From Saprospiraceae bacterium (GTDB taxonomy: Bacteria > Bacteroidota > Bacteroidia > Chitinophagales > Saprospiraceae), in contig JAUMBK010000232.1 of NCBI GenBank assembly GCA_032115795.1, positions 1 to 46,777 on the forward strand: a DNA stretch of 46,777 bases, written 5' to 3'. Every line of letters starts with the position of its first letter. The first letter of the stretch is position 1. The notes under the pieces are model-generated. The model did no database searches, was not told the origin of the DNA, and worked only from the letters and a program-made list of their open reading frames with translations. The position numbers and the translations under genes were made by a program. Positions 24,520-45,790 of the stretch are shown here, piece after piece.

Positions 24520-24533
24520 CTGTTCAGCCTGGA

Positions 24534-25985: not shown

Positions 25986-25989
25986 AAGA

Positions 25990-27933: not shown

Positions 27934-27967
27934 TTTTCCAATTACTTTTAGATTCTAAGAGAAACCA

Positions 27968-28306: not shown

Positions 28307-28805
28307 TTTCCGCTTCTTTTTTATTGAAGATGACTACGCCCACCATTCCTGAAAGGAACAATACGCTAGTCACTTCAAAGGGAATTAAAAATTCGTTAAA
28401 CAGGACTTTGCCCAGCGTTTTCGCCAAACCGATATTCTGGTCAACAAGTTGAGGTGCCTGACCAAACGGGGTTGCCCAAAGTGCAGCAAATAGTACAAAT
28501 AAAAACAATAAGCCAGTGAAGACAGCGGCTACCATCACCAGCTTACTTTTTCTGATTGTGACAGGAGAGCTCATATTCAGAAACATGATCACATAGAGGA
28601 AAAGCACCATGATGGCGCCGGCATAAACGATGATATGCACGATTCCCAGAAACTGGGCATTCAGCATGACATACAGACCGGCGACAGCAAAAAAGCAAAC
28701 CAGTAAAAAGAGCACACTATACATGGCATTCTTATGGAAAATCATGAGCAAGCTGCTAATGATAGCCACAAAGGAAAGGGAATAGAAAGCGATTTCGGTC
28801 AGCAT
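28299..28805 (-). CDS. nuoJ: NADH-quinone oxidoreductase subunit J
   Basis: 168-aa ND6-like hydrophobic protein in the conserved position between nuoI and nuoK. It overlaps nuoK by 8 nt. Confidence 0.85.
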   Translation of the reverse strand: MLTEIAFYSLSFVAIISSLLMIFHKNAMYSVLFLLVCFFAVAGLYVMLNAQFLGIVHIIVYAGAIMVLFLYVIMFLNMSSPVTIRKSKLVMVAAVFTGLLFLFVLFAALWATPFGQAPQLVDQNIGLAKTLGKVLFNEFLIPFEVTSVLFLSGMVGVVIFNKKEAENE

Positions 28806-28817
28806 AGAAATATATTT

Positions 28818-29366
28818 TTAAACAGCGCCCTCACGCACGCCTTTTCGTCTGGGTCCAATATCAATCCGTTCATTCGCTGATTCGCCTTCCAGCAACATAT
28901 CCTTGGTGTAAAGGAAGGCGTTTCGGGCGTAATCGGACAAGCTGATTGTATCGGTCAGATAAATGGCATCTTTGGGGCAGGCTTCTTCACACAAGCCGCA
29001 GAAGATGCATCTGAGCATATTGATATTATATTCAGCTGCGTATTTCTCTTCTCTATAGAGGTGTTCTTCACCTTTGTTTCTTTCTTCAGCAACCATCGTT
29101 ATTGCCTCTGCTGGACAAGCCACTGCGCAAAGACCACAGGCGGTGCAGTTTTCCCTGCCATCCTCATCCCGTTTCAGAACATGGCGACCTCTGAAAAACT
29201 TGCTGTGTTCCCTGGTTTGTTCCGGGTAGCTGATGGTCACTTTTTTCTTAAACAGGTGGTGAAATGTGATTTTCAGACCACCCAGTATGGCGGGAAGATA
29301 GAGTTTTTCCACCCACGACATCGTCTTATTTGAAACGACTTTGCTTCTTTTTGTTAACGGCTGCAT
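28818..29366 (-). CDS. nuoI: NADH-quinone oxidoreductase subunit I
   Basis: Two ferredoxin-type 4Fe-4S motifs: CTACGLCAVACP and CIFCGLCEEACP. Confidence 0.93.
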   Translation of the reverse strand: MQPLTKRSKVVSNKTMSWVEKLYLPAILGGLKITFHHLFKKKVTISYPEQTREHSKFFRGRHVLKRDEDGRENCTACGLCAVACPAEAITMVAEERNKGEEHLYREEKYAAEYNINMLRCIFCGLCEEACPKDAIYLTDTISLSDYARNAFLYTKDMLLEGESANERIDIGPRRKGVREGAV

Positions 29367-29370
29367 GCAA

Positions 29371-30405
29371 TTATTGATTTAGAATAATGATGGTACCAGT
29401 AGCCAGCATATTGAGAACAGACAGGGGAAGGAGCACTTTCCAACCCAGATTCATCAGTTGGTCAAACCGAAATCTCGGGATGGTCCACCTGACCCACATG
29501 AAAAAGAAGATAAAAAAGATAATTTTTGTGAAGAACACCAAAACGCAAAGAATGACAAAGGGTATTTCTCCCATTGACTGAGCAACCACATCCATGAAGG
29601 GAAAGTTATACCCGCCAAAATAAAGGCAAGTAATGACAGCACTGGAAATGAACATGTTTACGTATTCAGCAAACAGGTAAAATCCGAGTTTCATGCTGGA
29701 ATACTCTGTGTGATAGCCACCGACAAGTTCAGTTTCACTTTCCGGCAGGTCAAACGGTGTCCGATTGCACTCGGCAAAAGCGCAGATCAGAAAAATTATA
29801 AAGCCCAGAGGTTGAATCAGTACATTCCAGTTCATTCCTGCAGAACCATGTTGCGCGGCAACAATATCACCCAGGCTAAGGGAACCTGAGGTCATGATAA
29901 TGGCGATGATGCTCATCCCCATGGCCAGTTCGTAGCTTATCATTTGAGTTGAAGCCCGGACGGCGCCCAGGAGGGCAAATTTATTGTTGGAAGCCCAGCC
30001 ACCGATCATAATGCCATAAACACCCAGGCTGACTACCCCCATAACATATAAAATGCCGATGTTGATATCGGCCACCTGGAGGGGCACTTTTGTACCGTTA
30101 ATCGTGATATCTGGCCCAAAAGGGATGACAGCACTGGTCATTAGTGCGGTGATCATGGTGATGGCAGGTCCTGCGACAAACAAGATTCTATTTGATGTAA
30201 GGGGGATAATTTCTTCTTTCATAATCATCTTGATGCCATCAGCGATTGGCTGGAGTATGCCAAAGGGACCGGCTCTGTTTGGTCCCAGTCGGTCCTGAAT
30301 AAAGGCAGCAATTTTTCTTTCAGAAAACGTGCTGTAGGCTGCAATTCCCAGGGATACAAGGAACAAGACAAAGACCAGCAAAATTTTAAATGCAATGATT
30401 GTCAT
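29371..30405 (-). CDS. nuoH: NADH-quinone oxidoreductase subunit H
   Basis: 344 aa with the ND1 signature FIQDRLGPNRAGPFGILQP and the later ECNRTPFDLPESETELVGGYHTEYS. Confidence 0.93.
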   Translation of the reverse strand: MTIIAFKILLVFVLFLVSLGIAAYSTFSERKIAAFIQDRLGPNRAGPFGILQPIADGIKMIMKEEIIPLTSNRILFVAGPAITMITALMTSAVIPFGPDITINGTKVPLQVADINIGILYVMGVVSLGVYGIMIGGWASNNKFALLGAVRASTQMISYELAMGMSIIAIIMTSGSLSLGDIVAAQHGSAGMNWNVLIQPLGFIIFLICAFAECNRTPFDLPESETELVGGYHTEYSSMKLGFYLFAEYVNMFISSAVITCLYFGGYNFPFMDVVAQSMGEIPFVILCVLVFFTKIIFFIFFFMWVRWTIPRFRFDQLMNLGWKVLLPLSVLNMLATGTIIILNQ

Positions 30406-31364
30406 GGTGCAACCTGGTTTTCGGTGGGTAATTGAGGCTGAATGACGGGCAATTCAAATTTCATGTGATTTTGGGAAATCACAGAATGGCTGTCGATTTT
30501 TGCGGGTCCTTCGATAATCCAGTCTTCTGTATTTTTATGATCAAACCTGCAGGAATTGCAAATAAACGACTCTGCTTCACCCCATTTGTCTTTTCTTGCT
30601 GTCACTCTGAGTACATCCTTTCCCTGGTACCATAACGTCACTTTTCCATCGCAGGTAGGGCAGTTACGATGTGCAAGCACGGGTTTTGTAAACCAAACGC
30701 GGGATTTAAACCGGAACGTTTTGTCGGTCAGCGCACCTACCGGGCAGACATCGATCATATTTCCTGAAAAGTCATTCTCGATGGCTTGTTCAATGAGGGT
30801 TGAAATTTCAGAGTGGTCTCCTCTGTGCAATACTCCATGGACTCTTTCCGGTGTCAATTGCTCTGCTACCTGCGTACATCGGTAACAGAGGATACACCGG
30901 TTCATGTGAAGCTGAATTTTATCTCCGATGTCGATTCGTTCAAACTCTCTCCGTTTGAATTCGTACCTGCTTTTTGAAAGGCCATGTTCATAGCTGAGAT
31001 CCTGGAGTTTGCATTCTCCGGCCTGATCACAAACGGGGCAGTCTAGGGGATGGTTTGCCAGTAAAAGCTCGGTTACTCCTTTTCTGGCTTCCTGCACCTG
31101 TGGAGATGTTGTGTTTTTTACTTCCATGCCGTCCATGACGGCAGTGCGACAGCTGGCCACAAGCTTGGGCATGGGTCTGGGGTCTTTGTATGATCCTGCT
31201 ACCACCTGAACCAGGCAAGTTCTGCATTTGCCGCCGCTTCCCTCCAGTTTGCTGTAATAACACATTGCCGGGGGCACATTTTCTCCAATCATTCTTGCTG
31301 CCTGCAATATGGTTGTCCCCAGGGGTACTTCTATGCTTATATCATCTATGGTCACTTTGGGCAT
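30402..31364 (-). CDS. nuoG: NADH-quinone oxidoreductase subunit G, short form (N-terminal Fe-S module only)
   Basis: Cluster motifs are all present: 2Fe-2S C-x10-CRTC-x..-C, N5-type HPLDCPVCDQAGEC, and N4-type CILCYRC..CPVGAL. The protein is only 320 aa, so the molybdopterin-like C-terminal domain is absent. Confidence 0.88.
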   Translation of the reverse strand: MPKVTIDDISIEVPLGTTILQAARMIGENVPPAMCYYSKLEGSGGKCRTCLVQVVAGSYKDPRPMPKLVASCRTAVMDGMEVKNTTSPQVQEARKGVTELLLANHPLDCPVCDQAGECKLQDLSYEHGLSKSRYEFKRREFERIDIGDKIQLHMNRCILCYRCTQVAEQLTPERVHGVLHRGDHSEISTLIEQAIENDFSGNMIDVCPVGALTDKTFRFKSRVWFTKPVLAHRNCPTCDGKVTLWYQGKDVLRVTARKDKWGEAESFICNSCRFDHKNTEDWIIEGPAKIDSHSVISQNHMKFELPVIQPQLPTENQVAP

Positions 31365-31384
31365 GGCAAGCGAATTATTTTACA

Positions 31385-32731
31385 TTAAACAAGGCTGGTT
31401 TGCATTTCGGGTTGATACACATGATCCTCATCGAATACGCGGTGAGGGTATTTTACATGGTACTCAAATTCATGACGGAAGTGCCTGATTGCTGCTGCGA
31501 CAGGCCAGGCGGCAGCATCGCCCAGGGGGCAGATGGTGTTTCCTTCAATATTGCTTTGTACCTGCCAGAGCAGGTCAATGTCCTCCATCCTGCCATGTCC
31601 TGTTTCGATGTTGTGCAGGATGCGCTCCATCCAGCCGGTTCCTTCCCGGCATGGGCTGCACTGGCCACAACTTTCATGGTGGTAAAAGCGAGCGAAGTTC
31701 CAGGTGTTGCGAACGATGCATTGTTTTTCGTCGTAGACAATAAAGCCTCCGGAGCCCAACATTGAACCTGTGGCAAATCCGCCCTCTGCCAAACTCTCGT
31801 AGGTCATCAATCTGGGGGATCCATTGCTTTCTTTGAATAAAAGATGTTTTGGGAGGATGGGTACTGACGACCCTCCAGGTACACAGGCTTTCAAATCCAG
31901 TCCATTGCGCATACCTCCACAATATTCATCGGAGTAGATAAATTCTTCCACGGGCAGACCGAGTTCAATTTCGTACACGCCAGGTTTGTTTATGTTTCCT
32001 GATGCAGAGATTAATTTTGTACCTGTCGACTTGCCGATGCCAACGTTGGCATATTCCTCTCCGCCATGGTTGATGATCGGTACCACAGCGGCGATACTTT
32101 CCACATTATTTACAATGGTTGGACAATTCCAAAGACCGGCAACTGCTGGGAATGGAGGTTTAATTCTCGGATTCCCCCTTTTTCCTTCCAGAGACTCAAT
32201 CAACGCTGTCTCTTCACCACAGATGTAGGCACCCGCTCCGGGATGCACATACAAATCGAGGCTGTAGCCTGAATTTACTATATTTTCACCCAGAAATCCT
32301 TTGGAATAGGCTTCCTTTATTGCATTTTCAAGAATTCGAAGCACAAACATGTACTCCCCGCGGATATAAATATAACTTGTGCGGCATCCCAGGGCAAAGC
32401 TCGACAAAATCATACCTTCAATAAGCAGGTGGGGCAGTTTTTCCATCAGGTACCTGTCTTTGAAGGTGCCGGGTTCACTCTCATCAGCGTTGCACAGAAG
32501 GTATCTGGGCTTGTCGGAAGATTTGTCCAGAAACGACCATTTCAACCCTGTGGCAAATCCTGCACCCCCTCGACCACGCAACCCTGACTTTTTCACTTCT
32601 TCCGTTACATCGTCAGGAGACATCGTCAACAGGGCTTTATTCAGGGACCTGTACCCACCGTGTTTCATGTATGTATCAATTCCCTGGATTCCGGGAATAT
32701 TGGCGTGTTCGAGTAAAATCTTTCTTCCCAT
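31385..32731 (-). CDS. nuoF: NADH-quinone oxidoreductase subunit F
   Basis: FMN/NADH-site motif GLRGRGGAGFATGLKW and N3 cluster motif ESCGQCSPCREG..C. Confidence 0.95.
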   Translation of the reverse strand: MGRKILLEHANIPGIQGIDTYMKHGGYRSLNKALLTMSPDDVTEEVKKSGLRGRGGAGFATGLKWSFLDKSSDKPRYLLCNADESEPGTFKDRYLMEKLPHLLIEGMILSSFALGCRTSYIYIRGEYMFVLRILENAIKEAYSKGFLGENIVNSGYSLDLYVHPGAGAYICGEETALIESLEGKRGNPRIKPPFPAVAGLWNCPTIVNNVESIAAVVPIINHGGEEYANVGIGKSTGTKLISASGNINKPGVYEIELGLPVEEFIYSDEYCGGMRNGLDLKACVPGGSSVPILPKHLLFKESNGSPRLMTYESLAEGGFATGSMLGSGGFIVYDEKQCIVRNTWNFARFYHHESCGQCSPCREGTGWMERILHNIETGHGRMEDIDLLWQVQSNIEGNTICPLGDAAAWPVAAAIRHFRHEFEYHVKYPHRVFDEDHVYQPEMQTSLV

Positions 32732-33252
32732 TATCGGTATTCTTTTGGGCTTTCATTTTTGGAAAGGGAGGCCAGTATTTCGTCTACTTTTTCCTCTGTC
32801 AGATTTTCATAATACGTTTCACCTATTTGAAACATAGGAGCATAGCCACAGGCCCCCAGGCATTCTACAGTGGTGAGTGTAAATTGTCCATCCGACGTCG
32901 TCTGACCCACCTGAATACCCAGTTTCTTTTCGAGATAGCTTAGCAGTTTTTCGGCACCACAAATCATGCATGGTCCTGTCTGGCATACTTCGATTACATA
33001 TTTTCCTACAGGTTCAATGCGGAACATTGTGTAGAACGTGGCCACTTCATAAACTTCTATGGGTTTTATCTGCAGCAAGGCAGCCACCTTATTCATGGTT
33101 TCTATCTGTAGCCAGCCTTCTGTCTCATTCTGAACGACGTGTAAAATGGGAAGCAGCGCTGATTTCCGCTTATCTTCCGGATATTGCAACAGAATTTTGT
33201 TTATTTCCTCTGCTGCTCGGGCACCGATTGGCAAGTCATGCAAATGTGTCAT
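32731..33252 (-). CDS. nuoE: NADH-quinone oxidoreductase subunit E
   Basis: Thioredoxin-like 2Fe-2S motifs: CQTGPCMICG and ECLGACGYAPM. Confidence 0.93.
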   Translation of the reverse strand: MTHLHDLPIGARAAEEINKILLQYPEDKRKSALLPILHVVQNETEGWLQIETMNKVAALLQIKPIEVYEVATFYTMFRIEPVGKYVIEVCQTGPCMICGAEKLLSYLEKKLGIQVGQTTSDGQFTLTTVECLGACGYAPMFQIGETYYENLTEEKVDEILASLSKNESPKEYR

Positions 33253-33263
33253 TTCTGTATTGT

Positions 33264-34502
33264 TTATGCATCCAATTCTCCTGCAATCACATTCATACTA
33301 CTCATGGTGAGAATGGCATCGCTCAGCATGCTTCCTTTGATCATTTCCGGGTATGCCTGGTAATAGATAAAACAAGGTCTGCGCAGGTGCAGGCGGAAAG
33401 GCTGCCTTCCTCCGTCACTGATCAGGTAAAATCCCAATTCTCCATTGCCCCCTTCCACGCACTGGTATACCTGTCCTTTGGGAACATTGATTTCTCCCAT
33501 CACTATTTTAAAGTGCCAGATTAAACCTTCCATTGTATTGTATACATCTTCTTTCGGAGGGAGATAAAATTCGGGTACATCCGCATGAAAGTTGCCTTCC
33601 GGCAAATTTTTCAGGGCCTGCCTGATGATGTCCATGCTTTGCCACATTTCCTCCTGTCTGACACAAAACCGATCATAGGTATCACCGGAAGAACCCACCG
33701 GAATTGTAAAGTCAAAATCCTGGTAAGAGCAGTAGGGCGACATCACGCGAACGTCATAATCGACGCCTGCGGCGCGTAAGTTGGGTCCTGTAAAACTATA
33801 TTCCATTGCCCTTTCGGCCGTAATTTTACCTACATTGATTGTTCTGTCCATGAAAATGCGGTTGCGCATAACCAGGCTTTCAAATTCTTTCAGGGCTGTT
33901 GGAAATTCTTCCAGCAAGGCATGTATTCGCTGGAAGACCTTTTCAGAAAAATCACGCTCGAAGCCGCCTACCCTACCTATGTTTGTAGTAAGTCTGGCAC
34001 CGCAAATTTCCTCATAAATATCATAAATTTTCTCACGCCATTGGAAAACATACAGAAATCCCGTCAACGCACCTGTGTCAACGGCAACGACGCTATTGCA
34101 GATAATGTGGTCAGCAATGCGTGCGAGTTCCATGATGATGACGCGCATATAATCAACGCGTTTCGGGGTTTGTACGCCCAGCAATTTTTCAACAGTCAGG
34201 TGCCAGCCTATGTTGTTGATTGGAGAAGAGCAATAATTTAAACGGTCGGTGATGGTAGTTACCTGGTAAAACGGCCGATTTTCGGCTAGTTTTTCAAATG
34301 CACGGTGGATATACCCTATGGTTGGTTCGGCTTCCACAATGATTTCCCCGTCCATTTTCAGTACATTCTGAAAAATACCATGCGTTGCCGGGTGGGTGGG
34401 CCCCAGGTTCAGGTAATTGTATTGCCTGATGTCTTCCTCTGTCTCAATATGGCCATTGAGGGTGTGAGAATGGTGAAAATTATCGTCCGAAATATTTATC
34501 AT
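33264..34502 (-). CDS. nuoD: NADH-quinone oxidoreductase subunit D
   Basis: 412 aa with LNLGPTHPATHG near the N-terminus and a 49-kDa-subunit-like C-terminus. Confidence 0.93.
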   Translation of the reverse strand: MINISDDNFHHSHTLNGHIETEEDIRQYNYLNLGPTHPATHGIFQNVLKMDGEIIVEAEPTIGYIHRAFEKLAENRPFYQVTTITDRLNYCSSPINNIGWHLTVEKLLGVQTPKRVDYMRVIIMELARIADHIICNSVVAVDTGALTGFLYVFQWREKIYDIYEEICGARLTTNIGRVGGFERDFSEKVFQRIHALLEEFPTALKEFESLVMRNRIFMDRTINVGKITAERAMEYSFTGPNLRAAGVDYDVRVMSPYCSYQDFDFTIPVGSSGDTYDRFCVRQEEMWQSMDIIRQALKNLPEGNFHADVPEFYLPPKEDVYNTMEGLIWHFKIVMGEINVPKGQVYQCVEGGNGELGFYLISDGGRQPFRLHLRRPCFIYYQAYPEMIKGSMLSDAILTMSSMNVIAGELDA

Positions 34503-34995
34503 CTTTATCCGTTCTTGTATCGTCCACCAGGGAATATTGTTTTCTTAAAGGGTGATAATTCATGTCCTCTACATTCAGTATGATTCTAAGGTCTGGATGA
34601 CCATCAAAAAGAATTCCGTAAAATTCGAAAGTTTCCCTTTCCATCCAGTTGGCGCCAGCATACAAGGTTGTCAAAGTTGGTACATTCAGGTCGTTTTCGG
34701 ACATAAAAATGTGTACCCTTATTCGAATGTTGTTTACGAAGCTGTGCAAATGGTACACTACTGAAAATTCATTTTCCTTTTGTTCGGGATAATGTACACC
34801 ACAGAGACTTGTGAGGAATTGAAACTGGAGGATGTCGTGCTGTTTTAACCAGGTAATGACGGGTATGAGGCTTGGTTTCTTGATTACAATATCGAGCATG
34901 CCATAACTTTCCTCAATGCTCTTTACATCATTTCTAAATTCATGGAGGACAGCTTCTCTGATGTAAGAATTGTCGGGTGTTGTTTCACGCATCAT
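34480..34995 (-). CDS. nuoC: NADH-quinone oxidoreductase subunit C
   Basis: 171 aa with the 30-kDa subunit motif [25 protein letters not shown]. Confidence 0.92.
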   Translation of the reverse strand: [171 protein letters not shown]

Positions 34996-35546
34996 AGAAT
35001 ATCGTAACTTTCCAGTAATTGCCTGTATTCGGGAGATTCTCTTCTTCTGAGGGGTTCATTTTTCATCAGCTCCTGGATTTTCAGGATGCCATCCAAAATT
35101 GCCTCGGGCGGAGGAGGACATCCGGGCACGTATACATCCACAGGGATGACCTTGTCGATGCCCTGTAGCACGGAGTATGTGTCAAAAATTCCACCGCTGC
35201 TGGCGCACGCACCCACAGCGATCACCCATTTTGGCTCTGCCATCTGCGTATATACCTGTTTGAGGACGGGACCCATTTTTTTTGCAATCGTACCCATTAC
35301 CATCAGCAAATCGGCCTGCCTTGGTGAGAAACTAAGTCTTTCGGCTCCAAAACGTCCCAGGTCATAGGTAGCTGCCATTGTAGCCATAAACTCAATACCA
35401 CAGCAAGAGGTGGCAAAGGGAAGTGGCCAGATGGAATTGGCTCTGGCCAGGCCGACTACCTTTTCCAGTTGGGTTAAACCGTACCCTTCGCCGACGTACA
35501 TTTCCGGTCCGGCGGAATTGGATTTCAATGCAGGATTTAGTCCCAT
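34992..35546 (-). CDS. nuoB: NADH-quinone oxidoreductase subunit B
   Basis: N2 cluster ligand motifs CCGIEFMA, GACASSGG and VPGCPP. Confidence 0.95.
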   Translation of the reverse strand: MGLNPALKSNSAGPEMYVGEGYGLTQLEKVVGLARANSIWPLPFATSCCGIEFMATMAATYDLGRFGAERLSFSPRQADLLMVMGTIAKKMGPVLKQVYTQMAEPKWVIAVGACASSGGIFDTYSVLQGIDKVIPVDVYVPGCPPPPEAILDGILKIQELMKNEPLRRRESPEYRQLLESYDIL

Positions 35547-35917
35547 CTCAACGCCCCTTTTTTGATTACATAATAAAATCCAAGTAAAAAAGGAGAAACA
35601 AACAGTAGCATTTTCAGCAAGCCTGATTCTCCGAGTTCTCTAAAATTGACTGCCCAGGGATAAAAGAAGATGATTTCAGCATCAAACAACACAAACAGGA
35701 TGGCCGCCAAAAAGTATTTTACTGAAAAAGGAAGGCGGGCATCACCAATGGATTCCAGTCCACACTCAAAGCTCTGCAATTTCGTATCGCTTTTAAATTT
35801 TGGGCCAAGTTTGTGTGTCAGAAAAAAAGTACCCAAAACAAAGCTTGCAGCCACAATAAATTGCGCCAATATGGCCAAATAGTCAATTTGAATTGCATCA
35901 ATCGTCATGTTTTCCAT
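35537..35917 (-). CDS. nuoA: NADH-quinone oxidoreductase subunit A
   Basis: 126 aa with three TM helices and the ND3 motifs FECG and FDAEIIFFYPW. Confidence 0.9.
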   Translation of the reverse strand: MENMTIDAIQIDYLAILAQFIVAASFVLGTFFLTHKLGPKFKSDTKLQSFECGLESIGDARLPFSVKYFLAAILFVLFDAEIIFFYPWAVNFRELGESGLLKMLLFVSPFLLGFYYVIKKGALRWD

Positions 35918-37841: not shown

Positions 37842-38222
37842 ATGAGATTGTTATCTAGATTTCTTTTTTTTACACTCATCTTCCAATTGCTTGCCTTAAG
37901 CAGTCTTCCACCGGCGGTAGGAAGTGCTGTGACGGAACGCAATAAGTTTCGGGTCACAAAGCAGGCTGTTCTGACGAACGATTCCGGAGTGTTGGGTCAG
38001 TTTGCGGGTTTCAACAAGGAAGAACTGAATGAAATTACAGAAGACGAAACGGAAGATTTTCAAGCATTTCCTGACGACACGGAGGGCGAATCTTCGACAT
38101 TTTCTCCGTTTGCCTTTGGGACATCGGCCACAAATCTCTCGGCTGGTGTGCTTGTGCCCATAGTAACGAGGGCGTTGTTTATACTTTTCCATTGCTGGAT
38201 GGTGGACCTTTTTCTTGACTAA
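37842..38222 (+). CDS. Hypothetical small secreted/membrane protein with acidic cluster, upstream of SulP-2
   Basis: 126 aa with signal-like N-terminus MRLLSRFLFFTLIFQLLALSS, acidic stretch TEDETEDFQAF and a hydrophobic C-terminus. Coding status is uncertain. Confidence 0.35.
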   Translation: MRLLSRFLFFTLIFQLLALSSLPPAVGSAVTERNKFRVTKQAVLTNDSGVLGQFAGFNKEELNEITEDETEDFQAFPDDTEGESSTFSPFAFGTSATNLSAGVLVPIVTRALFILFHCWMVDLFLD

Positions 38223-38315
38223 ACTATGTGCGGTCATGTGAATTTTAGTTTCATGTGGCTTCTTGCATGGTATCCTGACAGGATACCTGTTTTTTAGTCA
38301 TGTAAAAAGGTAAAA

Positions 38316-39908
38316 ATGAAATCATTCAATACAGTTCCTAAAGACGGAATCGCCGGACTAAGGGAACATTATCAAGCGGATGCGATCTCCGGCTTTCTTG
38401 TTTTTTTGCTCGCCTTGCCATTGAGTTTGGGTATTGCGAAGGCTTCAGAATTTCCACCGATTATGGGTTTGATCACAGCCATTGTCGGAGGGATTGTGGT
38501 CAGTATTTTTGCTGGAAGTCGTCTGACGATCAAAGGCCCTGCTGCCGGATTAATTGTGATTGTTGCCGGTTCTGTAACGGATTTTGGTGGAGGTGAAGAA
38601 GGGTGGCACCTTGCTTTGGGGGCCATGTTTGTTGCGGCAGTAATTCAGATTCTGTTTGGGGTTTTCAAATTTGGCAAGCTGGCAGATTTTTTTCCGTTGT
38701 CAGCCATCCATGGTATGCTAGCGGCTATTGGCATCATCATCATCGCCAAGCAAATTCCAATCATGCTCAATGTGGACCCGTCCCTGCTGAAGGGCAAAGG
38801 GCCGTTGGGGCTACTTGCCTACATTCCACAAGCCATTGCTCACCTTGACCCAAGGGGTGCGGCTATTGGCATTTTGAGTCTGGCAATTATGATGGGTTGG
38901 CCCTACATGAAAAACAGGGTTATTGGGAAGCTGCCAGCGCCCCTGGTTGTCCTTCTAATCGCTATTCCTGCGGAGTTGTGGATGGATTTTCAGCATTCAG
39001 AACCAACGTATGCGCTTGTCCATTTAGGCAATCTTGTAGAAAGTCTCCACTTAAATGTTCGTTTTGACGGATTTTCAGAGCCGGGAGTTTTTATCAAGTA
39101 TGTAATTATGTTTGCCCTGGTAGGTTCGCTGGAGTCTCTGCTGACAGTCAAGGCCATCGATTTACTTGACCCATACAAAAGAAAATCGGACTATAACCGA
39201 GATCTGATTGCAGTTGGCATTGGCAACGTATGCACATCCATTTTGGGGGGATTGCCCATGATTTCAGAAGTAGCGCGAAGTTCTGCCAATGTGCATAATG
39301 GGGCAAAAACCCGTTGGGCCAACTTTTTCCATGGATTTTTCATTCTGGTCTTTGTGCTCATTGCCTCCAGGTATATTGAGATGATACCCAATGCTGCTTT
39401 GGCGGCCATGTTGATTTCTGTGGGTATTAAACTTGCACATCCTAAGGAATTTGTGCATACTTTTCAGATTGGAAAAGAGCAACTGGTGATATTTTTAACA
39501 ACGATTTTCTTCACATTATTTGAAGATTTGCTGGTGGGAATTGCTGCCGGCATAGTGGTGAAAATCCTTTTCCATTTATGGAATGGAGCCCCGTTACGAG
39601 CCCTTTTCAAGGCCCCTGTGTCCATTTCCTTTGAGGGGAATGAATATTTGGTTGAAATCGACAGGGCAGCGGTATTTACCAACTTCATTGGTATAAAAAA
39701 TTGTTTGGAAAGCATCCCAGGAGGCTTCTATGTTACAATTGATCTTCAAAACACCCGCATTACGGATCACTCTGTCATGGAAAACCTACAACATTTTAAA
39801 CAGGATTATGAACAAAGCGGTGGTTCTGTGTATATTTCGGGTTTGGATGAACATATCCCTTTTTCTAAGCACGAACTGGCTTCCAGAAAGAAAAAGGCAA
39901 AAGGGTAG
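38316..39908 (+). CDS. SulP family inorganic anion transporter with STAS domain (SulP-2)
   Basis: 530 aa with the SulP signature ISGFLVFLLALPLSLGIAKASEFPPIMGLITAIVGGIVVS and a C-terminal STAS-like domain. It is a paralog of SulP-1. Confidence 0.9.
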   Translation: MKSFNTVPKDGIAGLREHYQADAISGFLVFLLALPLSLGIAKASEFPPIMGLITAIVGGIVVSIFAGSRLTIKGPAAGLIVIVAGSVTDFGGGEEGWHLALGAMFVAAVIQILFGVFKFGKLADFFPLSAIHGMLAAIGIIIIAKQIPIMLNVDPSLLKGKGPLGLLAYIPQAIAHLDPRGAAIGILSLAIMMGWPYMKNRVIGKLPAPLVVLLIAIPAELWMDFQHSEPTYALVHLGNLVESLHLNVRFDGFSEPGVFIKYVIMFALVGSLESLLTVKAIDLLDPYKRKSDYNRDLIAVGIGNVCTSILGGLPMISEVARSSANVHNGAKTRWANFFHGFFILVFVLIASRYIEMIPNAALAAMLISVGIKLAHPKEFVHTFQIGKEQLVIFLTTIFFTLFEDLLVGIAAGIVVKILFHLWNGAPLRALFKAPVSISFEGNEYLVEIDRAAVFTNFIGIKNCLESIPGGFYVTIDLQNTRITDHSVMENLQHFKQDYEQSGGSVYISGLDEHIPFSKHELASRKKKAKG

Positions 39909-39911
39909 ACA

Positions 39912-41204
39912 ATGAAAAATATCATATTGATTTTGTTTGTGCTCGTTTTTTCGTCAGCAGCATACTGTCAGCGCATTTCTGAAGGAAAATTCTATCTGGA
40001 CGAAAGCGGACAACATTACCTAAAGATTTCTTTTGCTTCGCAATTTTGGTTGCGTCAGGCTTCCTACAATCCGGGTTCCAGTGTGTACGGGTTTCCAAAA
40101 AAAGGGGGTGTGGATATAGGAATCCGGCGCTTTCGAATGCAGTTTTTTGGGCAGCTGACTGACAGGATCTTTTTTTACAGTCAGTTTGGAATCAATAATT
40201 TCAACAGTATTTCAGACCGAAAGCTTTCCTTTTTTGTGCATGATGTCAATGGAGAAGTGGCTGTTTTCAAAGGAAAGTTATCTCTTGGTATGGGTTTGTC
40301 GGGATGGAGTGGACTTGCCCGTTTTTCGTCACCAGCAGTTGGATCCATTATGGGTTTGGATGCACCGTTGTACCAGCAGACCACAAATGATGTGACTGAC
40401 CAGTTTTTACGAAAATTAGGGGTTTTTGCCAAAGGCAAATGGGCTGCGTTGGATTACCGTTTTCAGGTGGCACAACCTATGTCCATACAGAAGTCCACCT
40501 TTTATTCCCCTGAGGTGACCAGCAATGTCTCGTTTTCCAATCTGCCGCCACATTGGCAGTGGAATGGATATGTGCAGCTGCAGTTTTTGGACAAAGAACC
40601 CAACTTAACGCCCTATTCGACCGGCACATATCTAGGTAAGAAACGAGTCCTAAACCTGGGCGCCGGGTTTCAGTACCAGCGAAAAGCCATGTGGCGATTA
40701 AACCAACTTTCCGGAGACACACTATTGCACCCTTTGTTTCATCTGGGAGCGGATGTGTATTATGATGCCCCTCTTGGGACGGATGGAAAGGCAATGCACG
40801 CCTATGTGCAATGGAGCCATCTTGATTTCGGTCCTGGCTATCTCAGAAATCTGGGTGTAATGAATCCCTCTAACGGAACGCTGGATAAGTATGTTGTGAA
40901 TGGGGGAGGTGTTGCTTTTCCAGCATACGGAACGGGCAATGTCTTTTATGTGCAGATGGGCTACAAACTGCGGGACCAGTTGCTTGGGAAGGCGTCATGT
41001 ATGCCCTTTGTTTCCTGGCAGCGCGCCGATTATGAGCGGTTATCGGGTATAATGCATTATTATACCGGGGGCATATCTGTTTTTCTAAATGGACATGGTT
41101 CAAAACTGACATTGGCGTATGAAAGCAGACCAGTATTTTATTCTGATGGTCAGGAAAGCAGCCGGAAAGGTGCAATGATTCTGCAATACCAGATTTTTTA
41201 TTAG
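39912..41204 (+). CDS. Outer-membrane porin (beta-barrel, possibly anion-selective)
   Basis: Signal peptide MKNIILILFVLVFSSAAYCQ, amphipathic beta-strand periodicity throughout, and a C-terminal ILQYQIFY aromatic terminus. It starts 3 nt after the SulP-2 stop. Confidence 0.7.
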   Translation: MKNIILILFVLVFSSAAYCQRISEGKFYLDESGQHYLKISFASQFWLRQASYNPGSSVYGFPKKGGVDIGIRRFRMQFFGQLTDRIFFYSQFGINNFNSISDRKLSFFVHDVNGEVAVFKGKLSLGMGLSGWSGLARFSSPAVGSIMGLDAPLYQQTTNDVTDQFLRKLGVFAKGKWAALDYRFQVAQPMSIQKSTFYSPEVTSNVSFSNLPPHWQWNGYVQLQFLDKEPNLTPYSTGTYLGKKRVLNLGAGFQYQRKAMWRLNQLSGDTLLHPLFHLGADVYYDAPLGTDGKAMHAYVQWSHLDFGPGYLRNLGVMNPSNGTLDKYVVNGGGVAFPAYGTGNVFYVQMGYKLRDQLLGKASCMPFVSWQRADYERLSGIMHYYTGGISVFLNGHGSKLTLAYESRPVFYSDGQESSRKGAMILQYQIFY

Positions 41205-41422
41205 ATCCGCATGAGTCAAGTCATGTAGGTGGGTAAATGTATTTGCTCACTACATGCCTTCATATAATCCAATCACTTACTTGTTGGATGGCATTGTTTC
41301 TTTCTTAAACGAAAAAAAAGAGGATACATACACCGATGGTTCTTTTTCGAGTGGTGAACCCTTGGCAGTAAAATCCAATCACGCGTAGTGTCATGTACAA
41401 TTCGTAAACTAACGCAACAACA

Positions 41423-43915
41423 ATGAAACACACAATAGATATTTTCAGGGTGGATAATGTGATCCATCATTTAAAGCATTATTTGCCTTCGCAGGCTCCG
41501 CTCAAGGATTTTATACATCACAATACGCTGCATGCCTTTCAGGACAGGAAGTTTTTTCAGGCAATCACTGAAGCAAGCAACATCTTTGGGTATAAAACGA
41601 GTCTTTCTCTAAGCGAATACAGGATGCTTTTTCTTTCTGGTAAAATTCAAGTAGGAGTGCTTGAAAAGGTGATCCAAAGCAGAAAGGGTAAAGGACAGCA
41701 GGAAGAATGGAAGCAAAAAATGCTTCAAGGGGAATACTCCGATAATTTTGCCGGACGAAGGAGTCATTTAAGAAACCATTGGAAAGACCTGTACAACATA
41801 GATCTTGATCTTGCCATCCAGCCCTTTTTGTTTCGGTTTTTATGCAGCTATCTGGACCAGGGAATTGCAATCTGGCGATTTCCGGTATGGAACAAGGGAT
41901 TCCTGACCACAATCAGAGAGATGGAGAGGAATACGTTTAACAGTTTTTTCAAAACGCCTCGTGCACGAAAATTACTGATGGACAGGAAATGCGAAATTAT
42001 TGACCTGTTGCAGATTCTGGTGGGCGACGAAACTCTGTTTGAGCATTATCTGTTTGACCAGCAATTTGCCCACCCGGGCTGGTCGGGCATGGTGTCTGTC
42101 ATTGAAGACACGCCTCAATCCCTGCTTGATGCCAGGCGTATTTCCTTGCATGATTTGATCATTTTTGAATTGTTGCTGGAAATAGATCAACTAGACAGGA
42201 AGTTTGGTGAAAACTGGCTGCCTTTAGGACTGAGGATAGAGAAGAAACCGGAACATTTGTTTGCAAACGTAGAGGTAACAGAGTACAGGGAAGTGCTTCA
42301 TCTGTGGCAAGAAGCGTTTGAATGGACATATTACGACCAGGTATTGGGTGGAATTTCGAAGGTTACTGTTCGGAATGAAGAGGTCAGGAAGGTGGATTTT
42401 CAAGCATTATTTTGTATCGACGACAGAGAATGTTCTTTTCGGCGTTATGTAGAGGACATTGATCCTGGTGCTGAGACTTTTGGAACGCCCGGATTTTTTG
42501 GTGTCGAATTTTACTACAAACCAATGAATGGCAAATTTTCCATGAAGGTATGTCCGGCGCCGGTAACACCAAAATACCTGATTAAAGAGGAGATAGAAAA
42601 TAAAACTACGAAGAAGGATTTTCACTTTGCGGATTATACACATTCGCTCTTTTTTGGCTGGCTGATTACGCATTCCATTGGATTTTGGTCAGCGATCAGG
42701 CTTTTTATCAACATTTTTACACCGCGTTTGAGTCCTGCGACGACACTCTCGTTCAGGCATATGGATCGATTTTCGAGATTGTCTGTGGAGCATTTTGGCC
42801 ATGAACAACCAGAAGACGGTTTGCAGGTTGGCTTTACGGTGACAGAAATGGCAGACAGGGTGGAGGCATTATTAAAAAGCATTGGCCTGGTTGGTGATTT
42901 TGCTCCTATCGTGTATGTCGTTGGCCATGGTGCCAGCAGTGTCAACAACACCCATTATGCAGGCTATGATTGCGGTGCCTGTTCAGGAAGACCGGGTTCT
43001 GTCAATGCACGGGTTTTATGTTACATGGCAAACCACCTGGAGGTCAGGCAAATTCTCAAGTCACGTGGAATCACGATTCCGGCAACAACGATTTTTCTGG
43101 GGGCATTGCATGATACGACACGTGATGAAATTGAATTTTATGATGATCAGTTCACTGACGCGGGCAAAAATCAGTTGCACCTGAAGAATAAGGAAGTTTT
43201 TCAAAAAGCTTTATTGCGAAATGCACGGGAAAGGGCGAGGCGCTTTGTCACCATTTCGCCAAAATTGTCTTTGCGGCGCTTATACAAGAAGGTCAAAGAC
43301 AGGTCGGTATCCCTCTTTGAGCCACGTCCGGAATTAAACCATGCCACAAATGCGTTGTGCATCATTGGGCGCCGTGACATGACAAAAGACCTGTTTCTTG
43401 ACAGGCGGGCCTTTATGAATTCGTACGATTGCACTATCGACCCTGAGGGCAATTCTCTTTTTCATATTTTAAAGGCGGCGGCGCCGGTTTGTGGAGGCAT
43501 TAATCTTGAATATTATTTTTCCAGAGTCGACAATCTGAAACTGGGTGCCGGCACCAAACTTCCACACAATGTGATGGGGCTGATAGGTGTGGCAAATGGC
43601 ATAGACGGAGATTTGCGGCCGGGGTTGCCAAATCAAATGGTTGAGGTCCACGACCCTGTTCGCTTGCTGATCATCGCGGAACATTACCCGGAAGTTGTAT
43701 TAAAGACGATACAGCGTACGCCTGAATTGTATGAATGGTTTATAAACGAATGGGTGCATCTGGTTGCAATTCATCCGGACAACCGGACCATCTGGCGTTT
43801 TGAGGAAGGCAGTTTTACAGAATATATGCCTGATTATCAGCCGGATGTAGTAGGAAACATAGAAAAACATTTTGAAACGGAAGTAGATAACTTACCTGTA
43901 TTCCTTATAAAATAA
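41423..43915 (+). CDS. dabA: DUF2309 family protein, DabA/MpsB-type (beta-CA-like subunit of a DAB inorganic-carbon pump)
   Basis: 830 aa with the DUF2309 N-terminal hallmark LPSQAPLKDFIHHNTLHAF. The putative zinc ligands are FCIDDRE (C331 codon 42413..42415, D333), GHG (H502, 42926..42928) and DCGAC (C517, 42971..42973). The gene is directly followed by a PF00361-type gene. Confidence 0.9.
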   Translation: MKHTIDIFRVDNVIHHLKHYLPSQAPLKDFIHHNTLHAFQDRKFFQAITEASNIFGYKTSLSLSEYRMLFLSGKIQVGVLEKVIQSRKGKGQQEEWKQKMLQGEYSDNFAGRRSHLRNHWKDLYNIDLDLAIQPFLFRFLCSYLDQGIAIWRFPVWNKGFLTTIREMERNTFNSFFKTPRARKLLMDRKCEIIDLLQILVGDETLFEHYLFDQQFAHPGWSGMVSVIEDTPQSLLDARRISLHDLIIFELLLEIDQLDRKFGENWLPLGLRIEKKPEHLFANVEVTEYREVLHLWQEAFEWTYYDQVLGGISKVTVRNEEVRKVDFQALFCIDDRECSFRRYVEDIDPGAETFGTPGFFGVEFYYKPMNGKFSMKVCPAPVTPKYLIKEEIENKTTKKDFHFADYTHSLFFGWLITHSIGFWSAIRLFINIFTPRLSPATTLSFRHMDRFSRLSVEHFGHEQPEDGLQVGFTVTEMADRVEALLKSIGLVGDFAPIVYVVGHGASSVNNTHYAGYDCGACSGRPGSVNARVLCYMANHLEVRQILKSRGITIPATTIFLGALHDTTRDEIEFYDDQFTDAGKNQLHLKNKEVFQKALLRNARERARRFVTISPKLSLRRLYKKVKDRSVSLFEPRPELNHATNALCIIGRRDMTKDLFLDRRAFMNSYDCTIDPEGNSLFHILKAAAPVCGGINLEYYFSRVDNLKLGAGTKLPHNVMGLIGVANGIDGDLRPGLPNQMVEVHDPVRLLIIAEHYPEVVLKTIQRTPELYEWFINEWVHLVAIHPDNRTIWRFEEGSFTEYMPDYQPDVVGNIEKHFETEVDNLPVFLIK

Positions 43916-43921
43916 GCAGTA

Positions 43922-45790
43922 ATGGACAAATTTCTTGAAATATTCATCCTCTGGCCGATGGCCGCGTTTTTCATTTCCCTGTTTCTTCCAAAGTCGAATG
44001 AAAAGTTGATTTCCGGATTTTCATTTGGTGTTGTAGGCCTTCATTTCATTAGCATCATTGGCTTTTTGGCCTATTGGATTTCTGTGGGCAGGGGCAATAT
44101 TAACATCCAGGAGTTTTCACTTTATAAAAGTGAGAACCTGCATTATTTTATTGATTTTTATTTTGACCATGTTACAGCGGTTTACAGTCTGGTTGGTTCC
44201 ATGCTTACATTTCTGGTGATCACATACAGCAGGATATACCTGCACAGGGAAGACGGCTTTAAACGGTTTTTTTATACAATTTTGTTTTTTTATGCCGGCT
44301 ACAACCTGGCTGTCTATGCTGGCAATCTGGAGACCTTATTCATTGGGTGGGAGATTCTGGGCATTACTTCCTTTTTATTGGTCGCATTTTACAGAGAGAG
44401 GTATCTTCCTGTAAAAAATGCCTTAAAAGTATTTTCCATTTACCGGATAGGGGATGTGGGTATTCTTCTTGCGATGTGGGCGAGCCATCACTTTTGGCAT
44501 GAAAATGTCACCTTTGAAAAAATGCATGACATCAACCAAGTGCAGTCACACCTGCAGGGCCATGCTTTGTTTGGGGTCTTTATATCGATCATGTTGTTAT
44601 TGGCAGCCTGTGCAAAGTCAGCCCAGTTTCCTTTTTCTTCCTGGTTACCCCGTGCGATGGAGGGGCCAACTCCTTCCTCTGCCATTTTTTATGGGTCGTT
44701 GTCTGTTCATTTAGGTGTTTTTCTATTGTTGCGGACGATGTCATTTTGGGAGCAACAACTCTTGCCGTCCATTCTCATCGGCACGGTGGGCTTGTTTACA
44801 GCCATAATCGGAGCATCGATAGGAAGGGTACAGTCGTCGGTCAAGAGCCAGATTGCATATGCGTCTGTCGCACAGATTGGGTTGATCTTTTTTGAACTTG
44901 CGCTGGGGTTTGAGACGCTTGCTTTGGTACATTTTGCCGGCAATGCGTTTCTCCGGACATACCAACTTTTGGTTTCTCCTTCAGCGGTTAGTTATTTGAT
45001 CCGAGAGCAGTTCTATCATTTTGAGTCTAAGCATCAGAACATCGAGACCCATTTTTCGAAAAAACTGGAATATTCTTTGTTTCTTTTGAGCATCAAAGAA
45101 TGGAATATGGACGAACTTCTTGACAAGTTTATCTGGAAACCTTTGAAACATATGGGAACGCTTCTATCCTTTCTAAATAGCAGGAATGTATTTTATTTTG
45201 TCATTCCGACGTACGTCATCGGCTTGCTTGTCAAGATTACGAGTTATTCCATTCCGCCATTCATGTTGGATCTCTTGCCTGAGATTTATGCCTTTCTGGG
45301 CTTGCTTCTTGTGTTCAGGGCGTATTCGGAAAGACGAAATGTGTTTGTTGGCTGGACATTGATTTTAATGAACCATTTCTGGGTTGTTCTTGCCATCTCA
45401 TTCAATGATACGCTTTCGCTTTATGAGACAATATATTATTTTACTGGTGTCATTGTTGCCGGTTTGTTGGGATACACTGTTTTGTATGCCTTACAAAAGA
45501 AGGAAGCGGGTATTGACCTGAATAGATTTCAAGGACACGTATATGAATATCCGCGATGGTCAGCTGCATTTTTGACAGCCTGTCTTGGCCTTGCAGGGTT
45601 TCCTATTAGTACGACGTTTGTAGGCGAAGATATTTTGTTTTCACACATTTCCTACGATCAGGTCTTTCTGGCTTTTTATCTTTCTTTAGGCTTTGTGATT
45701 TCCGGGATTACCCTGATCAGAATGTTTGCCAGATTGTTTCTTGGGCCACATGTGAAGAGATACCATGCCATTGCCCAGCGATCTTCTTAA
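43922..45790 (+). CDS. dabB: NuoL/MrpA-like proton-conducting membrane transporter, DabB/MpsA-type
   Basis: 622 aa and polytopic, with FIGWEILGITSF (TM5 Glu), AKSAQFPFSSWLPRAMEGPTPSSAIFYGSLSVHLG (TM7 Lys plus the broken helix) and a C-terminal GFPISTTFVGEDILF. It starts 6 nt after dabA. The real nuoL lies elsewhere in the window. Confidence 0.85.
   Translation: MDKFLEIFILWPMAAFFISLFLPKSNEKLISGFSFGVVGLHFISIIGFLAYWISVGRGNINIQEFSLYKSENLHYFIDFYFDHVTAVYSLVGSMLTFLVITYSRIYLHREDGFKRFFYTILFFYAGYNLAVYAGNLETLFIGWEILGITSFLLVAFYRERYLPVKNALKVFSIYRIGDVGILLAMWASHHFWHENVTFEKMHDINQVQSHLQGHALFGVFISIMLLLAACAKSAQFPFSSWLPRAMEGPTPSSAIFYGSLSVHLGVFLLLRTMSFWEQQLLPSILIGTVGLFTAIIGASIGRVQSSVKSQIAYASVAQIGLIFFELALGFETLALVHFAGNAFLRTYQLLVSPSAVSYLIREQFYHFESKHQNIETHFSKKLEYSLFLLSIKEWNMDELLDKFIWKPLKHMGTLLSFLNSRNVFYFVIPTYVIGLLVKITSYSIPPFMLDLLPEIYAFLGLLLVFRAYSERRNVFVGWTLILMNHFWVVLAISFNDTLSLYETIYYFTGVIVAGLLGYTVLYALQKKEAGIDLNRFQGHVYEYPRWSAAFLTACLGLAGFPISTTFVGEDILFSHISYDQVFLAFYLSLGFVISGITLIRMFARLFLGPHVKRYHAIAQRSS

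Follow-up and report, generated by a model that had tools for sequence, protein, structure and literature searches.

A His-type DabA–DabB gene pair beside a SulP-family transporter gene in a Saprospiraceae genome

A 46,777-nucleotide stretch of a Saprospiraceae bacterium (contig JAUMBK010000232.1 of assembly GCA_032115795.1; hereafter the window) carries two adjacent genes, dabA and dabB, that are related to the DAB and MpsAB systems. Our sequence comparisons indicate that these are real DabA/DabB-type inorganic-carbon (Ci) uptake genes at the level of the family, and that the pair is a member of a deep division, here called His-type, which lies apart from every DAB/MpsAB lineage that we checked. 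DabAB pairs of Bacteroidota are already known as such; what is new is the His-type division with its coordinated residue changes. With moderate confidence, we consider the best reading of the locus to be energy-coupled CO2 hydration that feeds bicarbonate to a heterotroph, beside SulP-mediated HCO3- transport.

An initial annotation of this DNA had stated that no characterised Bacteroidota example is known. As to occurrence, a paper of 2019 had already recorded mpsAB homologues in Bacteroidetes, and Desmarais et al. have described DABs from heterotrophs and from over 15 clades. The statement of the initial annotation that coupling ion and mechanism are open no longer holds in full, as two 2026 cryo-EM studies (Lo et al.; Phillips et al.) make a case for protons as the coupling ion of DAB1 and DAB2. 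The same annotation expected one gene of such a pair to be labelled 'hypothetical protein' and the other 'NADH dehydrogenase subunit 5'. This no longer applies to DabA, since PF10070 is named DabA and UniRef already calls the Bacteroidota relatives 'Probable inorganic carbon transporter subunit DabA', whereas the DabB partners continue to go under the names 'NuoL' or 'proton-conducting transporter membrane subunit'.

The dabA–dabB pair and its zinc site

The two genes lie on the + strand, dabA at 41423–43915 (830 aa) and dabB at 43922–45790 (622 aa), and are separated by 6 nt (TAA GCAGTA ATG), in agreement with the initial annotation. That annotation had proposed a hidden Markov model search of both proteins and an alignment of DabA to Halothiobacillus neapolitanus DabA2, and we carried out both. 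DabA matched Pfam PF10070 along the entire profile (E 1e-214; 715.7 bits against a cut-off of 25; profile positions 1–747 of 747), and DabB matched PF00361 (4.6e-35) and PF00662 (4.1e-07). The NCBIfam library gave no match to the window DabA. The string LPSQAPLKDFIHHNTLHAF, which had been cited as the N-terminal hallmark of DUF2309, begins at residue 21 of DabA. Strict pairing of the genes is also seen in relatives, where dabB directly follows dabA in 68 of the 69 loci with enough flanking sequence. We found no candidate for DabC 3' of dabB; a convergent MOSC gene follows after 140 nt, with no extra membrane open reading frame (ORF). AlphaFold2 (AF2) models of the two proteins reached predicted template-modelling (pTM) scores of 0.82 for DabA and 0.84 for DabB.

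The HMMER alignment of DabA with DabA2 (PDB 9RD0 chain A; E 2.9e-63, ~217 bits) places C331, D333, R335, H502 and C517 on C351, D353, R355, H524 and C539. In the DAB2 structure paper, C351, H524 and C539 are the zinc ligands of DabA2 and Asp353–Arg355 the catalytic dyad. The initial annotation had named C331, D333, H502 and C517 (spacings of 2, 169 and 15 residues) and had listed their DabA2 counterparts; all four residues are present, their columns coincide with those in DabA2, and the numbering given for DabA2 proved correct. The first ligand and the dyad lie in C331-I-D333-D-R335 (42413–42427, + strand), and the second and third ligands in the segment H502 … NNTHYAGYDC517GAC (42926–42973, + strand), which also holds the NN…DCGAC loop. 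None of the five varies among 120 close homologues, which are from Bacteroidota, or among 33 sampled diverse representatives. Judged from these alignments, the site, which resembles that of β-carbonic anhydrases (β-CAs), is intact.

Assignment of the pair to the DAB/MpsAB family thus holds, on the strength of PF10070 with an adjacent PF00361 protein; what does not hold is its equivalence to DabA2/DabB2 or to MpsAB, for the reasons given below. The non-autotrophic Bacteroidota setting that had been described is borne out by the closest DabA relatives, which are from Saprospiraceae metagenome-assembled genomes (74–78% identity) followed by Cytophagales (60–65%), and by neighbouring genes with housekeeping or heterotroph functions. 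No RuBisCO, carboxysome or Calvin-Benson-Bassham cycle gene was found among the window ORFs of at least 120 aa scanned with Pfam.

A His-type division with changes in both subunits

The cryo-EM papers define several features of DabA in the characterised complexes, namely a lid with the sequence GI(A/G)GFFG, a loop NNPYESALDCGACGG, a linker DW(X3)RPEWGL and, as finger/elbow, a hairpin that holds E444. The linker ends in a Leu (L658 in DAB2, L825 in DAB1) that stands in place of the Gln or His of β-CAs. In the window DabA, the linker reads S630-L-F-E-P-R-P-E-L-N-H640 (43310–43342, + strand), which shares only RPE with the canonical motif: DW is replaced by S-L and W by L, and H640 takes the position of DabA2 L658. 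Apart from position 632, which is Phe in 113 and Tyr in 7, each residue of this string recurs in at least 119 of the 120 homologues. The lid reads GTPGFFG and the loop NNTHYAGYDCGACSG, so that GFFG, NN and DCGAC are kept while the flanking residues differ from those of GI(A/G)GFFG and NN…DCGAC(G/A)G.

The counterpart of the finger/elbow is a hydrophobic helical hairpin at residues 408–446 (42644–42760, + strand). An L-INS-i alignment puts H417 at the position of E444, with the canonical F-x-F-V-E-x-x-G opposite I-T-H417-S-I-G, although the alignment of the finger is of moderate reliability. Within the set of 120 homologues this position holds either His or Gln, and across the His-type division it is His, Gln, Gly, Tyr or Ser. 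In DabA2, the finger mutants E444A and E444Q are inactive. AF2 predicts the hairpin helices (409–419 and 421–432) at low local confidence (predicted local distance difference test, pLDDT), and the low-confidence parts of the DabA model are the DabB-contact loops and the finger as defined by cryo-EM.

The linker residue separates the sequences into two types. His is present in 147 of 147 His-type sequences and Leu in all 37 canonical ones, and in a neighbour-joining tree of the 184 catalytic cores the 147 form one clade that contains none of the 37, with a short stem and no bootstrap values. Our search of 1.84 billion representatives at 50% identity gave 3,689 relatives; among the best 150 of these (32–51% identity), nearly all motif-bearing sequences have RPE-x-[G/N/T]-H. 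In contrast, DW…RPEWGL together with FAGFFG is carried by H. neapolitanus DabA2 and by five plasmid operons from Pantoea, Phaeobacter, Mycolicibacterium, Halorussus and Salinivibrio, and RPE-x-x-L is found in 116 of 120 retrieved proteins, including those of Staphylococcus warneri, Bacillus ('MpsB'), B. subtilis, B. thuringiensis and Legionella. The DabA of Rudanella lutea (Cytophagales) is of the canonical type, and Bacteroidota may therefore carry either type. A stringent pattern scan located relatives in 437 species-level genomes, with Bacteroidota accounting for 80 of the 80 among the matches listed; cultured heterotrophs among them include Runella zeae, Arcicella aurantiaca, Ohtaekwangia kribbensis, Emticicia and Fibrivirga. 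The conservation statements of both 2026 cryo-EM papers refer to close DAB1 and DAB2 homologues only.

Gene order also differs between the types. All His-type loci examined have dabA before dabB, whereas the five canonical plasmid operons have dabB before dabA, and the numbering of mpsA/mpsB and Tcr_0853/0854 in the 2019 paper is likewise opposite to the order in the window. We rule out a decayed pseudo-enzyme by the strong invariance in 120 DabA and 69 DabB orthologues and by the fixed length of DabB. One Saprospiraceae protein of 1390 aa (P0123), named 'Na-translocating system protein MpsB' by the Prokaryotic Genome Annotation Pipeline (PGAP), is a His-type DabA with an unrelated N-terminal extension of 540 aa; it was considered as a DabB–DabA fusion and rejected, as the extension has no PF00361-like similarity. 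The S. aureus MpsB sequence used as a probe turned out to be inexact (at most 70% identity to real entries, and 87% to one fragment of 277 aa), and only retrieved sequences were analysed.

Differences in DabB co-vary with the type of DabA. The window DabB resembles NuoL: hhalign aligns residues 3–363 with residues 2–360 of E. coli NuoL at a probability of 100%, NuoL/ND5 are the best Foldseek matches of its model (E about 1e-14), and NuoL is also the top match in a PDB sequence search, in which DabB2 reached only ~95 bits. DabB nevertheless scores below all NCBIfam cut-offs for NuoL (NF005141, 200.7 vs 556), MrpA/D (MrpA at most 130 bits vs at least 937), NdhF (NdhF3, 83 vs 588) and the hydrogenase-4 subunits, and no mrpB-G or cupA/B partner genes lie beside dabB in the window. 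A role as a complex I subunit can be ruled out because the nuo operon of the window has its own genuine NuoL (25990–27933, − strand), a second PF00361 gene in which all canonical axis residues are kept.

The central-axis residues of DabB (44351–44956, + strand) are partly those of NuoL, with E144, R175, D178 and K232 kept and Y257, H337, N341 and R345 changed. Here K232 corresponds to NuoL K229, Y257 to NuoL H254 and DabB2 H260, N341 to NuoL H338 and R345 to NuoL K342; the match between DabB2 H260 and NuoL H254 is taken from the constant +6 offset seen at K235/K229. All 69 Bacteroidota orthologues have the same eight residues. The structure papers characterise canonical DabB by K235/D185, by I151 at the position of NuoL E144, by a His that is essential (H260/H229) and by an H…H…K arrangement in transmembrane helix (TM) 11. 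The canonical partners that we compared are 455–551 aa long and have lost NuoL E144 (Ala, Thr, Thr, Met or Val in the five canonical DabBs) while keeping H254, H334, H338 and K342; the window DabB, in contrast, keeps the Glu. Its length is exactly 622 aa in all 69 locus orthologues and in nearly all of 120 database homologues.

Much of this length comes from an insertion of ~170 aa between TM11 and TM12 (residues 364–534; 45011–45523, + strand), comprising two short helices and four predicted TM helices. The insertion is absent from NuoL, and the C-terminal 263 aa of DabB had no match among PDB sequences. Beyond the insertion, a TM12-like segment, GFPISTTFVG-E569-D570-ILF (45596–45640, + strand), would place E569 at NuoL K399 and D570 at NuoL D400, the NuoL counterpart being …GFFS-K399-D400-EIL. 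We assign the Glu-Asp pair to TM12 because AF2 predicts a broken helix there (544–558/564–574) and because a significant bridge exists through a split Bryobacterales DabB, whose second gene aligns with residues 520–612 of the window DabB (E 5e-9) and with residues 217–441 of E. coli NuoL (E 1e-8) in the same register. In the AF2 model, two discontinuous helices appear as expected for TM7 and TM12. The DabB partners of His-type DabA in Bryobacterales and Bacteriovoracaceae also have the TM8 Tyr, the TM11 Arg and the TM12 Glu-Asp. In the Bryobacterales locus (L088, 7740–10300), DabB is divided into genes of 451 and 400 aa with the break roughly at the insertion, so that the C-terminal module is separable.

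The altered Tyr, Asn and Arg of the axis could mean that a different ion is used, and the pair might then serve primarily in cation translocation or in membrane-potential or pH homeostasis, in line with the original view of Mps as a Na+-translocating 'membrane-potential-generating system', with CO2/HCO3- chemistry being secondary or a means of supplying or consuming protons. For MpsA, Na+ translocation and the rescue of a Na+-sensitive strain have been reported, and the PGAP name of the related Saprospiraceae protein mentioned above points the same way. However, the zinc site is perfectly conserved, the neighbourhood is rich in Ci genes (SulP, porin and β-CA) and has no Na+ or Mrp genes, and DAB2 shows no Na+ dependence; we consider this explanation improbable.

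Inorganic-carbon genes around the pair

The initial annotation had overlooked several genes of the window: a nuo operon with the genuine NuoL, two SulP genes, a Can-type β-CA gene and a porin-like gene. Upstream of dabA lies SulP2 (38316–39908, + strand; PF00916, 2.8e-64), a SulP-family anion transporter of a DAB-linked lineage. Three nucleotides after SulP2, and directly 5' of dabA, is a gene for a porin-like outer-membrane protein of 430 aa (39912–41204, + strand). This protein belongs to no Pfam family and weakly matches the Geobacter selenite/tellurite porin ExtI (39 bits, cut-off 150); it may be an anion-selective outer-membrane channel.

To describe the neighbourhood we counted genes in 48 fully flanked loci, those with 8 kb or more of sequence on each side. 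In 35 of them a SulP2-type gene lies no farther than 10 kb from dabA, in varying arrangements, and in 24 it is accompanied by the porin. SulP2 is 48% identical to the SulP linked to the His-type pair in Bryobacterales, where the gene lies 9 nt 5' of dabA, and 39% identical to that of Bacteriovoracaceae, where it follows dabB, compared with only 33% identity to SulP1, the other SulP of the window. The tie between SulP and the His-type pair thus extends over three phyla, Bacteroidota, Acidobacteriota and Bdellovibrionota. None of the five canonical operons has a SulP neighbour; LysR regulators or CA genes are found there instead. SulP2 scores far below the cut-off of the BicA equivalog (141 vs 880).

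A hairpin followed by a T-run lies 5' of SulP2 (38269–38287, + strand), and no comparable terminator is present in the intergenic gaps from SulP2 through dabB; the hairpin is likely the 5' boundary of a SulP2-porin-dabA-dabB unit. The spacer between the porin gene and dabA is 218 nt long (41205–41422, + strand) and possibly contains an internal promoter, although the sigma-70 scan that we used is uninformative for a promoter of the Bacteroidota type. Within this spacer, a 14-nt direct repeat, TA[T/A]AATCCAATCAC, occurs at 41263–41276 and 41369–41382, 106 nt apart. It was dropped as a regulatory candidate, as it is conserved upstream of dabA in 0 of 15 relatives checked.

Two kinds of small ORF were seen 5' of the genes discussed here. 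One, at 37842–38222 in the window, lies between two DedA/VTT genes and SulP2, with the hairpin 3' of it, and would encode 126 aa that begin with a signal-like stretch and are very acidic in the middle; it has no Pfam or NCBIfam match. The other, a fast-evolving ORF of ~120 aa directly 5' of dabA, is present in an Ohtaekwangia locus (L022, 9393–9761), in L036 (9549–9908) and in at least 12 other Cytophagales loci. Its N-terminus is signal- or TM-like and its middle is acidic; it also carries a 'DHFFFI' motif and, at the C-terminus, 'YL[TV]QRS[IL][IL]I'. It has no Pfam match, and no such ORF is found at the corresponding position in the window.

Farther upstream, SulP1 (19096–20706, + strand) is followed after 6 nt by a Can-type β-CA gene (20713–21363, + strand), which passes the NCBIfam model NF007756 (275.5 vs a cut-off of 251). 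The two are a putative bicarbonate-transport pair of the classic kind, loosely associated with dabAB: among the fully flanked loci, a SulP1-like gene is near dabAB in 5 and a β-CA gene in 4. In the Ohtaekwangia locus, a SulP gene, a small CA-like ORF and a porin lie 2.7 kb 5' of dabAB. The SulP of the Ohtaekwangia and Chryseolinea loci has ~736 aa, ~200 aa more than in the window; in L022 (2970–5707) it is followed by a β-CA-like ORF of 176 aa (Pro_CA, 3.7e-8).

The tight linkage to SulP across phyla and the SulP–CA pairs of the window and of the Ohtaekwangia locus would also fit an essentially ordinary, non-vectorial β-CA that is tethered to the membrane. DabA, next to SulP2 on the membrane's inner face, would then interconvert CO2 and HCO3- in a 'bicarbonate transport metabolon', and DabB would be mainly an anchor or a local proton sink. 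This would be in keeping with H640, which restores the transition-state His/Gln of β-CAs that is replaced by Leu in DAB1 and DAB2, and with the missing DW…W motif and finger Glu. However, the charged axis of DabB (E144, R175, D178, K232, H337, R345, E569 and D570) is invariant or nearly so, which would be unexpected in a mere anchor. Furthermore, the L658Q mutant of DabA2 gave no free CA in vitro, so that the His alone need not uncouple the enzyme, and a soluble Can-type CA is already encoded in the window. Overall we regard an uncoupled enzyme of this kind as unlikely, though it is the alternative that we take most seriously.

The nuo operon (nuoA-N; 23098–35917, − strand) is complete, encodes a complex I of the 14-gene type and lies ~5.5 kb 5' of dabA. 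With this operon and with 2-oxoacid dehydrogenase genes near dabAB in the window, one might imagine the pathway in reverse, with SulP2 and DabAB disposing of or buffering respiratory CO2/HCO3-, or dehydrating imported HCO3-, for pH control instead of carbon supply; an active-site His of the canonical β-CA type could allow such reversibility. This has no precedent in the family, however, and the adjacency to nuo is not conserved, NuoA being found within 10 kb in 1 of the 48 loci, and we think it very improbable. In 5 of the 48 loci (L028, L041, L050, L060 and L064), an extra NuoL-like paralogue of ~30% identity lies ~6–8 kb 3' of dabB. The remaining genes of the window have housekeeping or heterotroph functions, among them an M4 protease with a weak match to a type IX secretion system tail.

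Proposed coupling and comparison with known systems

In the reading that we favour, energy-coupled hydration, the products of dabA and dabB would form a complex of two subunits that belongs to the DAB/DAC/MpsAB family. DabA would be the cytoplasmic β-CA-like subunit, docked through its membrane-inserted helical hairpin and active-site loops on DabB, the NuoL-like subunit predicted to conduct ions through the membrane. Ion flow via DabB down the membrane gradient would drive or gate CO2 hydration in DabA, and CO2 diffusing inward would be trapped as HCO3-. SulP2, as an HCO3- uptake system, and the outer-membrane porin, co-transcribed or co-localised with the pair, would work together with DabAB, and the combined module would supply bicarbonate to the carboxylases of a heterotroph. 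We favour energy-coupled hydration because the zinc chemistry is conserved, the pairing with an invariant charged axis is strict and the neighbourhood is one of inorganic carbon; the catalysis, its direction and the energy coupling of DabAB are nonetheless things that we infer.

How the subunits would be coupled is suggested by what is missing. The His-type division has neither a Glu in the finger nor a His in TM8, and its linker is not of the DW…W form; its coupling path would therefore differ from that of DAB1 and DAB2. The ion path might run wholly inside DabB, along E144-K232-Y257-H337/R345-E569/D570, using the TM12 of DabB itself, and not in part through a Glu lent by the DabA finger, as has been proposed for DAB2. 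If the path is self-contained in this way, the DabA hairpin would be purely mechanical. With His640, the canonical transition-state residue of β-CAs, in the active site, the chemistry may be nearer to that of an ordinary β-CA.

Several observations weigh against energy-coupled hydration. All functional data come from the Leu-type division, and in the literature searched, which did not extend to Schmid et al. 2021, we found no report of Ci uptake or of rescue of CA-free E. coli by any His-type member. Residues that are essential in DAB2 or DAB1, namely DabA2 E444 and DabB2 H260, are missing here, as is the coupling motif DW…W. A Foldseek search with the DabA model, against a PDB set that seemingly lacks 9RD0, gave no significant match and only faint ones to β-CA. 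By BLAST, DabB is nearer to NuoL (129–130 bits) than to the canonical DabBs (62–89 bits), which makes the common descent of both types as 'DabB' uncertain. The direct profile alignment of DabB 526–622 with NuoL gave the expected register, but at a score of 15.5 against a maximum of 22.4 for shuffled columns. Finally, the cytosolic Can-type β-CA gene lies 20 kb from dabAB; its product would, if co-expressed, dissipate an out-of-equilibrium HCO3- pool, and its presence argues against the need for a strongly out-of-equilibrium one.

A bolder reading is that the His-type dabA–dabB systems are a third, mechanistically distinct class of DAB, with their own complete two-half-channel ion path of the NuoL/NuoM kind (TM12 Glu-Asp), an ancestral transition-state His like that of β-CA and CsoSCA, and an obligate, dedicated SulP partner. 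We hold this only tentatively, as a possibility short of even chances; the pairs are found in Bacteroidota, Acidobacteriota and Bdellovibrionota, probably elsewhere too, and the class would take in all 150 of the nearest representatives at 50% identity, out of about 3,700. If it were true, the system would be a SulP–DAB bicarbonate metabolon whose coupling rules (the ion, the stoichiometry and even the reversibility) are unlike those drawn from the DAB1 and DAB2 structures. If the pair is instead an ordinary DAB, the gain is more modest, namely the correct annotation of a common Ci-supply module of heterotrophs.

In proposing how DAB complexes tie ion flow to one-way CO2 hydration, the 2026 cryo-EM studies name as conserved or essential the Leu of the active site, the DW…W linker, the Glu of the finger and a His of DabB. 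The His-type lineage, which is large and common in environmental heterotrophs, keeps the zinc chemistry, has changed the coupling positions together and retains in DabB an acid pair in a NuoL-type TM12. It offers a ready natural experiment on which features are needed for vectorial CA activity, and it hints at an intermediate on the way from an antiporter-like subunit plus an ordinary β-CA to the specialised pumps of autotrophs; the His-type may indeed be nearer to the ancestral 'antiporter-like subunit plus β-CA' state. For annotation, our results suggest that many 'DabA/DabB' and 'NuoL' labels in Bacteroidota cover the His-type system, known here from sequence, and that the SulP transporters beside His-type pairs are candidate bicarbonate carriers.

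Among known systems, DAB2 of H. neapolitanus (9RD0/9RD8/9RD9; Desmarais 2019, Lo et al. 2026) shares with the window pair a PF10070 protein beside a PF00361 protein, the Cys-His-Cys zinc site and Asp-Arg dyad, the GFFG lid, the NN…DCGAC loop, the RPE core, a hydrophobic finger hairpin and a NuoL-like DabB over TM1–11, and neither has a DabC. In DabA, however, L658, DW…W, E444 and FAGFFG of DAB2 contrast with H640, S-L…L, His or Gln and TPGFFG. DabB2 has I151 and H260 in 551 aa, whereas the window DabB has E144 and Tyr in 622 aa, together with Asn and Arg for NuoL H338 and K342, a TM12 Glu-Asp of its own and the 170-aa insertion. Furthermore, the window pair is SulP-linked and has dabA before dabB, unlike the dabB-first order of the five canonical operons.

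DAB1 (DabA1-DabB1-DabC of Thermocrinis albus and H. neapolitanus; Phillips et al. 2026) is similar in its zinc site, lid and loop motifs and NuoL-like partner. It differs in having DabC, for which the window offers no candidate, and Leu825, in place of which the window protein has His. The 'strictly conserved' NNPYESALDCGACGG of DAB1 is NNTHYAGYDCGACSG in the window DabA, and the residues of its proton path, His229, H312 and K316, have counterparts other than His or Lys in the window DabB. DAB2, DAB1 and MpsAB all rescue CA-free E. coli. The MpsAB and Bacillus YbcC-type systems (Fan et al. 2019, 2021) resemble the window pair in being found in heterotrophs, with a proposed supply of bicarbonate for carboxylations and a conventional CA in some species, but the Staphylococcus, Bacillus and Legionella entries have the canonical DW…RPEWGL and the order mpsA(B)–mpsB(A), and the window type forms a separate clade.

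With NuoL, ND5 and NdhF, DabB shares E144, R175, D178 and the K229 position as well as the discontinuous TM7 and TM12. The TM8 His of NuoL is Tyr in DabB, the TM11 Lys is Arg and the TM12 Lys is Glu, and DabB further differs in the 170-aa insertion, in lying outside the nuo operon and being paired with DabA, and in having no evident long lateral helix. Felce and Saier are said to have described, in 2004, pairs or fusions of SulP with carbonic anhydrase. Pairs of this kind, in which a gene for a SulP/SLC26 (BicA) transporter is coupled to one for a CA-type enzyme, are seen in SulP1 with the β-CA and in the Ohtaekwangia locus. The arrangement at SulP2 is similar but differs in that the CA-like partner is a large DabA–DabB complex.

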